Origin: Reclinomonas americana ATCC 50394
Lineage: Eukaryota
NCBI GenBank assembly: GCA_048213135.1
Contig: PS015335.1
Coordinates: 1-39,038, forward strand
Direction: 5' to 3'
DNA: 39,038 nt
In this document: one piece after another, positions 26,514 through 29,500 of the stretch
Layout of the letters: each line of letters starts with the position of its first letter
Position numbering within the stretch: the first letter of the stretch is position 1
Made by a program: the position numbers and the translations under genes
The notes under the pieces: model-generated
The model's database searches: none
Seen by the model: only the letters and a program-made list of their open reading frames with translations
Told to the model about the DNA's origin: nothing

Positions 26514-29500
26514 TTACACACTTGCGTGCGTGGAGACAAAACCCTCCAAAAACACCGCCGTGAGGCCCTCCGCCGGCAACGACCACTTCTCGTACGTCTG
26601 TGCATCGTTGGCGGTGAACATGCGGACCAGTGCCGGCAGCTCGGAGCTGGTCAAATGCACTTGACGCTGGAAGAACTGCACGAGCGAAGCAAGTGTATAA
26701 GGCACAAGATAAGCAGCGAGGCAACCGTTCCCCACTCCACGCAACATCTTGATGCCGTTCGAACAGCGCGTACACAAAGCCGACTTTGCTTTGCTGTTGT
26801 GCGCGCTTGGCCATCTCGACGAACAGGGCGTCGTTGTCGAGGTGCGTCTCCTGAATGACGAGAATCACCAGCACCGGGTAGAGCTTGCTGAGCGAACCGT
26901 ACGAGACCGGAGTCAGCTCGGGCACCGTCGGATCGGCCATGGTCTCCATCCACTGGCGCAAGGCGCTCTCGTCTGCCGCCGGCCCGCAGAACACTTGCGG
27001 TGCCTCGCCAGGACGGATGGCCACTGCCAGTGGGGTGCAGCCTTCGGGGGCTGAGGCGCTCATGACTTGCAGCAGGGTTTCGATGGATTCGATCGTCGCG
27101 AAACGCACTCCACGTGTGCGCATCGAGCGTGCGATGCGATCGAAATTGGACTGCATATGCATGAGCACGTGCGGGAAACGACGAGCACGACACGCAGACA
27201 GACGCACCATGAGCGGGCTATTCGGATTGCCAACCGCCACGGCTTGCACAATGCCCTGTCGTCGGGGCTTCCACGTGCTCACCGCCTCCAGCGTCATGGT
27301 CTCCACCGGTGGTCTGCGCGCACGCGCAGTGAAAGGAGAACGTTGTCAGAATCTGCTTTCTTCCGACACGTAGAGAGAGCGAGGTGTTCTGTCACAGAAC
27401 GCAACTGCGTCATGCGCACACCAAAGGACAACAGGTCGCCCTTGGAGCGATCACCTGCGCGCTGCTGTGTCAGTACAACACACAACTCATGCGTGTGAGT
27501 TGAACCAGCGGTACGCACCCTGGTAGTCCGTGTACACTCCATTGCTGCGCCATTTCAGCGTCGGGAAGCTGCGCACACCCAACTGGTCGCACACATCCTG
27601 GGCCACAGTGCAATCGACCTTGGCCATGGTGTATGTCGGCGGTGCCTCCTTCGAAGCGTCAATGAAAATGGGCATCAAGCTGAGCACGCACAAGGGAGAG
27701 AAAGAACAGAGAATTGAGTTGTCTTGTTTCACAGACACTGCGCAAGGGGAGACACAATCCTCACCGCTTGCAGTGACCGCTGCCGACGGAAGACAAATGA
27801 GAGAGAGAGAGAGTGTTTAGTCCAACAAGAGATCACGCGCAGGCCCTCAAGAAAACTCACCACCACGGAGCAATGCTGCGCCGCGACCACCACCATGTGA
27901 GAACAGGAATCGCTGAGGGGAGGGAAACATGCAGAGCACGCAACAATTCGATGAACCACTCGCCAGTGGCACTCGATGCGTAGTCGGCACTGGTGAGCAC
28001 TCTGACCTTGCTCGCAGCATCTTGCTCTTGTTGCTGCTGCTGCTGCGGTGGCTGGATGGCCATGCGCGCGGCGGAAACCACTTGCGCCGCGATCCAAGTG
28101 CTGACTTCGCCAAGCACAGGCTGTCCCTCGTAGTCGCGTTCCATCGGACCGGACTTGAAGCGCAGCGTGGGGAAGCCGGACACACGCTGCTTGTTGCACA
28201 GTTCTGCCTCCCCCCAAAAAACACGATACACATCAGCCCAGGCGCGACTTCACCACGTCAGCGGCAGTCTCTCCAACGACGAACCGGCCTCGGTGTCACA
28301 ATCGATCCGACTGAAGCGCACACCCGCAATCTTCTTGTTGATCAGTGACTCGAAGAAACCGTCGACTGGTCCGCAGGACTGCCAACAATACGTAAGTCAC
28401 GGCGACACCAAGCAGGCGAGAGGCAGTGGTACCATGGCACGAAACTGGGCACGGGGATATCGCGAAGAAGAGGAACCACGAGCCGTTGGCTGTCTCGCTG
28501 GTAAAATTCGATGCCGTCAGCCGCTCGCCATGTACAATCGTCTTCACTACAGCCGGCGGCGGCGGCGTCGCAATACCAGCACTGCAGTGCGGTACAAGTA
28601 AGCTTATCGCAATCAATAGAATATCGATGCACAATAGGGTGGGTAAACAACGCAACGCCGCGAGCAGGCTGTTGGCCTCGGTCAGCAGGTCGTCCTTGCT
28701 GCGCCCACGCGTGTAATCCGCGTACTTGCCGGCAGACTTGGTCTTGACAGTCGGGTAACCCTGCACATCTGTTCACCCGCCCGCACATACACAGTGAGCA
28801 CTGGGAGGGTCGAAGCGCGACAGTGTAGGTGCGTAACTCTTGAGACGGCACAGCTCCGTGTGTCTCGTGCAATCGACCTTGGCAAACGTGACTCCGGGCG
28901 GTGCCTCACCAGCAGCCTCCACGAAGATCGGCATCAATCTACGAGAGCAACAGTGGGGGTTGAGATTTGCACAACGCAGACAGGCGCAATCGCTGCGTTC
29001 CACACCTCTGGCAGTGACCACTGTTGCAAGTCAAACAGAAAAAAATGAGTGCGAGAACGACACGCGAATGGCCTGGCAGGAACATACCACCAGGGAGCAA
29101 TGCTGGTAACGGCGATGACAATAACACGCGAGGGGGAGAAGGAGAATGACACTAGTCAGTGGCTACGTTGGAAGCAGTGAGACTGGCAGGTAAGTAGCAC
29201 GCACAATTCGATACTGCGTCGAGAGAAACGAAGAAACACGCGGTCAGCGCGCACCGAATGCAACACGACGACAATGACGACAACAAATCTGACGCAACAT
29301 CCACAGGCCCTCATTCGTGCGCCGCTCATAGTCATCGGCCGCGAGGTCCACGACAGGTGACCGACCGCCTTCGGTGACAGGCACGTCCTGGTGAGGACTG
29401 GGTGCGGCCGACGGAGCAGGCAGTGGTGCCAGTCCCATCTTTTCACGCACAAACGACAAGAAGCCGTGTGTTGAGCGTTCGCTGTTGAATGCCGCGATCG

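Follow-up and report, generated by a model that had tools for sequence, protein, structure and literature searches.

The stretch analysed here, referred to below as the window, comprises 39,038 nucleotides of Reclinomonas americana ATCC 50394 DNA (GenBank assembly GCA_048213135.1, contig PS015335.1, positions 1 to 39,038 of the forward strand). Two genes on its minus strand, one for a membrane-anchored protein with six thioredoxin domains (26514..31758) and one for dipeptidyl-peptidase III (DPP3, peptidase family M49; 23230..26273), contain introns whose 5' splice sites (donors) fall into two classes. In the ordinary class, GT is followed by one variable pair of bases and by G at position +5 (as in t|GTGCGT); donors of the shifted class read GTT[G/T/A]CG (as in t|GTTGCGT), and both appear to be cut before the first G. 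Paralogous introns of the thioredoxin domains carry donors of both classes at the same codon, which makes it possible to compare the two signals at one and the same exon junction. All intron counts given below come from hand-built models of these two genes.

The gene of the thioredoxin-repeat protein, which resembles protein disulfide isomerases, was modelled with 27 GT-AG introns and encodes 1051 aa. With the 27 introns removed, one open frame of 3156 coding bases runs from the ATG at 31758 to the stop codon at 26516-26514, which is the only stop. The stretch 31365-27001 alone, with 25 GT-AG introns taken out, gives an open frame of 851 aa, and two further introns finish the model. The first intron of the gene is located at 31569-31363 (207 nt) and the last at 26745-26676, both on the minus strand; with the exception of the first one, intron lengths are between 58 and 102 nt. 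A CA/GT microsatellite at 31415-31560 fills most of the first intron. Two of the five exon translations tested matched the Pfam Thioredoxin profile PF00085 (E values of 1.1e-12 and 4.5e-7). The active sites are WCGHC in domains 1, 2, 4 and 6, CGYC in domain 3 and CPSC in domain 5, and this CxxC motif, together with the profile matches, places the domains in the PF00085 family. A hydrophobic anchor is present at the N terminus of the protein, and its C-terminal tail of about 300 aa has no match in Pfam.

In four of the six domains (1, 2, 4 and 6), the domain alignment shows introns that share both codon and phase (phase 2), immediately before APWCGHC. In domain 4, the exon ends with ATC GAA TT and is followed by the ordinary donor GTGCGTGCT, the first intron base being 29204; this intron, designated N, occupies 29103..29204 (102 nt). 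In domain 6, the same ATC GAA TT precedes the shifted donor GTTGCGTGCT of intron U (27876..27944, 69 nt), with the first intron base at 27944 and the TT at 27943-27942. The two donor strings differ by one extra T only, and both introns end with the acceptor CAG. At the same aligned codon, domain 1 reads ATC AAA TA|GTATGT (intron A, 31231..31288, 58 nt, first base 31288) and domain 2 reads ATC GAA TA|GTACGT (intron F, 30398..30476, 79 nt, first base 30476). Another shared position follows the residues GLW, where domain 2 has the ordinary donor TT|GTGAGT (intron E, 30486..30555, 70 nt, first base 30555) and domain 4 has the shifted donor AT|GTTGCGT (intron M, 29214..29298, 85 nt, first base 29298), both in phase 2. 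All these coordinates and strings, on the minus strand, agree to the base with the original prediction, in which the paired introns were taken as an internal control of the unusual donor. One more intron position, after W-C of the active site, is found in domains 4 and 6 only (intron O, 29021..29087, and its paralogue V, 27780..27860, both on the minus strand, as are all the introns named here).

Both donor classes occur at three paralogous positions with constant phase and boundary: after GLW (introns E/M), before APWCGHC (A-F-N/U) and at the domain end (I/D-Y). Because the junction is constant at all three, the donor class can apparently change without moving the splice site, and on the aligned sequences these positions support such a switch. 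As for introns N and U, our models place the cut of either donor ahead of its first G, which gives the junction TT|C in both mRNA regions. These introns are probably old paralogues of a single ancestral intron that splits the Phe/Tyr codon before APWCGHC; their donors now belong to two classes, while the predicted junction in the mRNA is the same.

Donors of the shifted class open 13 of the 37 introns modelled in the two genes, and the other 24 are in the ordinary register. All 37 are GT...AG introns of the U2 type, the removal of which restores the reading frame or homology (homology in the case of intron U). The [A/G]TATCCTT motif that marks donors of U12-type (minor) introns is absent from all 13 shifted donors. 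T at +3, C at +5 and G at +6 are each present in all 13 shifted donors, and T at +7 in ten of them; in the ordinary class, G is found at +5 in 23 of the 24 donors and T at +6 in 18. The shifted profile is thus the ordinary one displaced by one base, with the invariant G one base further into the intron. An exonic G at -1 precedes none of the 13 shifted donors versus 19 of the 24 ordinary ones (Fisher's test, 2.4e-6). The two features characteristic of a shifted (+1) register were therefore found, namely a consensus displaced by one base from the GU at the cut and no dependence on an exonic G at -1. In sense orientation, the two genes contain 12 occurrences of GTTGCG: ten are donors, two lie within introns, and none falls in the 5216 exonic bases. 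The two non-donor copies, at 31239 and 24674 (minus strand), are situated a few bases upstream of the acceptors of introns A and d6. The median intron length is 69.5 nt in both classes (12 shifted versus 20 ordinary introns). The acceptor is CAG in all 13 shifted introns, and TAG occurs in three of the 24 ordinary ones.

The heptamer GTTGCGT is found 33 times in the window against an expected 10.07 ± 3.12, a count that none of 100 shuffled sequences reached, and its matches fall in strand blocks that follow the orientation of the genes. GTTGAGT is absent from the window, where 6.31 ± 2.51 copies would be expected, although the corresponding ordinary motif GTGAGT is common (40 copies). At position +4 of the ordinary donors, which corresponds to +5 of the shifted ones, A was found in ten, C in nine and T in five cases, versus C in 13 of 13 shifted donors (p = 2.3e-4). 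Stricter rules thus hold for the shifted class, which is not just any ordinary donor with a T added; the functional equivalence supposed in the original prediction is too broad a claim.

The DPP3 gene was modelled as an independent control anchored in homology, using tblastn with fetched homologues and reading the gaps in the sequence. It matches the Pfam M49 family (E value of 1.2e-43) and has ten introns; its 3' end is approximate. Three of the introns begin with shifted donors, a|GTTGCG, at 26183, 25605 and 24732. The spliced model of 698 aa shows 48.7% identity with residues 5-717 of the homologue P0001 (28 gaps in 715 columns, 707 bits). For the single open frame, identity with DPP3 homologues is at most 37%. 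In the interval 23951-25605 (minus strand), five of the ten introns have lengths that are multiples of three (69, 60, 66, 60 and 84 nt), and four of these are free of stop codons. A naive open frame (416 aa) continues straight through three such introns. Gene calls based on reading frames in this genome are bound to contain spurious insertions. The first DPP3 intron (25837-26183) is far longer than the others (347 nt) and contains GT repeats.

The gain or loss of one T after GT would be the only single-step switch between the two classes that keeps the junction fixed and leaves the mRNA unchanged. The original prediction proposed that the donors are interconverted by such an indel of one nucleotide, and as the simplest route this proposal stands. 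In its strong form, the N/U pair would directly preserve a single T insertion or deletion, the first nine to ten bases would be identical by descent, and the donors would be fully interchangeable. Beyond the near-identity of the two donor strings, 9 of the 21 bases following the donor agree between N and U in the register corrected for the indel versus 3 of 21 in the uncorrected one; however, 45 of the 666 intron pairs reach the corrected value. Of the nine bases that the two donor strings share, six belong to the constrained motif. The GCT shared after the GCGT motif would be found by chance in a random ordinary/shifted pair with a probability of 0.021, which is suggestive only. The interiors of N and U are similar at the chance level (their local score of 13 was reached by 167 of 300 random pairs and 638 of 1000 shuffles), and in their 3' parts 2 of 21 bases agree, a value reached by 659 of the 666 pairs.

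In favour of a single preserved event, the O/V intron position is exclusive to domains 4 and 6, and their third-position identity is the highest (34 of 48, versus 0.46-0.58 for the other domain pairs in which 40 or more codons could be compared). After the donor motif, O and V agree at 12 of 21 bases in a fixed register, and only two of the 666 intron pairs reach 12. On the other side, the third pair of introns, P and W, agrees at 4 of 21 bases on its 5' side, while the unrelated introns I and V reach 13 of 21. Domains 4 and 6 are 51% identical, and the domain tree has no resolved branching, its terminal branches being 0.6-0.8 changes per site long. The strictness of the shifted class, with its C at +5 and the missing GTTGAGT, also speaks against full interchangeability. 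We therefore regard the strong form as rather doubtful. Given an old duplication and unrelated intron interiors, the N/U pair is compatible with one old T indel and too old to prove that route. Its use as a control holds for the position, where a shifted and an ordinary donor appear to define the same junction, and fails for the mutational step, of which the pair is not proof.

Another kind of difference can be noted between introns C and L. Intron C of domain 1 (30944..31009, minus strand) follows TAT CCG with the ordinary donor GTGCGT in phase 0, and intron L of domain 3 (29530..29595, minus strand) follows TAT CC with the shifted donor GTTTCGT in phase 2. Relative to C, intron L begins exactly one base further upstream within the same Pro codon of GYPT. 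Their donor regions can be aligned in the genomic register without an indel, and the missing base comes from the acceptor side of L. The arrangement looks like a one-base slide of the intron coupled to a change of donor class. As in one-base intron sliding, the two introns are one base apart, one being ordinary and the other shifted, with the motif at the same genomic place; in contrast to an established slide, C and L are a single case between old paralogues, and one of the introns may have been gained independently.

The probable explanation for the displacement of the consensus is a pairing of the donor with U1 small nuclear RNA one base out of step. Intron G at +1 would then be placed opposite the C of U1 that normally faces the exonic G at -1, U at +2 would remain unpaired, and the bases from U at +3 onward would pair as those from +2 onward normally do. 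One pair is lost in the shifted register, and the rest must fit, which we propose as the reason why +5 is always C; in this organism, U1 may carry G opposite this C. Duplex energies of 30 donors (19 ordinary and 11 shifted) were modelled against assumed 5' ends of U1. The standard U1 end pairs with all 19 ordinary donors in the normal register (mean of -6.2 kcal/mol), and the 11 shifted donors barely pair with it (mean of -1.1 kcal/mol). With G at position 5 of U1, the solutions for all 11 shifted donors include the +1 register, nine of them purely, with a mean of -5.0 kcal/mol; the values for the donors of N and U are -8.1 and -5.3 kcal/mol, respectively. In every U1 model tried, the shifted donor of U pairs worse than its ordinary partner N. 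A scan of the window with Rfam revealed no small nuclear RNA and only a tRNA-Glu (CTC) at 17197-17269 on the plus strand.

A single retuned U1 with G at position 5 might serve two routine codes, the ordinary one after an exonic G and GUUGCG in the +1 register after A, C or U. The codes might be switched by a T indel (N/U, E/M and I/D-Y) or by a G-to-T substitution at +1 with a one-base slide (C/L). We put this mechanism forward tentatively, as one possibility. If it is true, one-base sliding of introns would be made easy.

Recognition could also be of a different kind, either by U1 in the normal register with one bulged U or by a second, dedicated small RNA or protein that reads GUUGCG. Bulged and asymmetric-loop registers are documented at human splice sites (Tan et al. 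2016, PMC4856993), and the extra U at +2/+3 could be read here as a one-base bulge. The very poor pairing of the standard U1 end with the shifted class is in line with such an alternative, and the standard U1 leaves the obligatory C at +5 without an explanation. However, a bulge keeps G at -1 opposite the same C of U1 as in ordinary donors and so predicts that this G is favoured, and it precedes 0 of the 13 shifted donors. The energy model gives the +1 register, and not a bulge, purely for nine of the 11 donors, with a mixed solution for intron L only. Moreover, acceptors and intron lengths are alike in the two donor classes. Taken together, this makes a different recognition unlikely.

The closest known case is the shifted (+1) register of human genes (Roca and Krainer 2009, as given in Tan et al. 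2016, PMC4856993), in which all pairs with U1 move by one position. Both have GU at the cut, the remaining consensus one base further into the intron, no reliance on an exonic G at -1, and cleavage at this GU. The human sites are an atypical minority, whereas here 13 of 37 introns in two genes are concerned. The motif also differs: it is GUUGCG here, with a U at +3 that is able to pair, and of the GUCAAGU type among the sites given by Tan et al. (PMC4856993). A further difference is the obligatory C at +5, and the U1 pairing proposed here comes from energy models.

Co-evolution of U1 and donors provides another comparison. In Roy and Bowser (bioRxiv 10.1101/2022.06.08.495308), Entamoeba is described with GUUUGU donors and a U1 beginning AACAAAC, and Mastigamoeba balamuthi with a candidate U1 (ACGUAC) that has G at position 5 and donors that prefer GUGCGC. 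Acceptance of U at +3 and preference for C at +4 in ordinary donors are shared with these systems, and a U1 carrying G at its position 5 would account for the obligatory C found here. Entamoeba and Mastigamoeba are described there with one consensus each, whereas two classes one base apart are present in Reclinomonas americana.

Several observations count against the interpretation given here for the two donor classes. Firstly, G is rare before GTTG throughout the window, whatever base comes next (19 of 219 cases), so base composition accounts in part for the lack of G at -1 in shifted donors; what holds firmly as a contrast is how strongly the ordinary class favours this G. Secondly, an exonic G precedes three donors of the ordinary register that carry T at +3 (G|GTTCGT at 28284, G|GTTTGT at 24959 and G|GTTAGT at 24034, minus strand), so that U at +3 seems to be tolerated in its own right. 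Thirdly, C at +4 is compatible with the standard U1 in Thecamonas and Mamiellales, according to the same preprint (bioRxiv 10.1101/2022.06.08.495308), and in view of this preference in lineages with the standard U1, a G at position 5 is to be taken as a conjecture. In addition, the intron models outside DPP3 were built on reading frame and domain alignment. Finally, intron U is a multiple of three in length and free of stop codons, and the frame would stay open even if this intron were retained.

U is called an intron on three grounds, namely where it lies, the GT...CAG at its ends, and an alignment of FIAPWCGHC with the other domains that needs no gaps; its retention was considered and dropped on the alignment with the paralogous domains. 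Only the cut before G27944 yields a spliced peptide that matches IEF/IEY of the paralogues. Sliding both borders by one base would give TT-GC ends and replace the conserved aromatic residue by Leu, and this variant was rejected. Another rejected candidate is an in-frame intron of 27 nt at 27939-27913, which would insert 14 residues before IAPWCGHC and is far below the 58 nt of the shortest among the 37 modelled introns. It is hence highly improbable that the TT arose from GTGCGT by a homopolymer miscall or that another donor is used in domain 6: despite the existence of the in-frame alternative, both variants of the border fail as described, the 33 copies of GTTGCGT lie in gene-oriented strand blocks, and the shifted donors obey -1 and +5 rules of their own, which random miscalls cannot create. 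For the 85-aa exon preceding intron U, none of 239 candidate proteins matched at E ≤ 0.001 and none of 161 pattern matches was confirmed as a metagenome locus, and the exact pattern across the domain 6 donor, with the T optional, matched no metagenome contig.

Full-text searches revealed no paper on an abundant GTTGCG donor class among the matches listed; the passages of the Mastigamoeba genome paper (PMC8136499) that were examined give intron density and GC content and contain no donor motif. The original prediction contributes the control by paralogous introns to this donor class, and the present analysis adds the rule of C at +5, the compositional caveat at -1, and the one-base offset of introns C and L. 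If transcripts confirm the shifted donors, a protist would routinely use, as its second splice signal, a pairing mode that is a rarity in human genes. The paralogous introns would then be natural controls, with either signal setting an identical junction. The implications concern the way in which the cut site is fixed after U1 has bound, and the way in which introns change their signal or slide by one base. For gene prediction, it means that standard donor models would miss about one third of the introns here.

The thioredoxin-repeat protein resembles multi-domain protein disulfide isomerases with PF00085 repeats in its WCGHC sites and its N-terminal hydrophobic anchor. It differs from them in having six domains, the Pfam-less tail of about 300 aa and the CPSC motif of domain 5, as well as in the splitting of the active site into exons of 9 to 15 nt. 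Micro-exons of 9, 9 and 10 nt and four of 15 nt chop the active-site region on the minus strand, within the spans 27765-27875, 29006-29102, 29205-29213, 30477-30485 and 31010-31019. One of them, TATCGAATT (29205..29213, 9 nt), separates introns M and N of domain 4. WCGHC is interrupted after W-C in domains 4 and 6.

Elsewhere in the window, seven runs of N (20-913 bases) break the sequence. An open frame at 4938-5852 on the minus strand matches Exo84_C with an E value of 4.1e-23.

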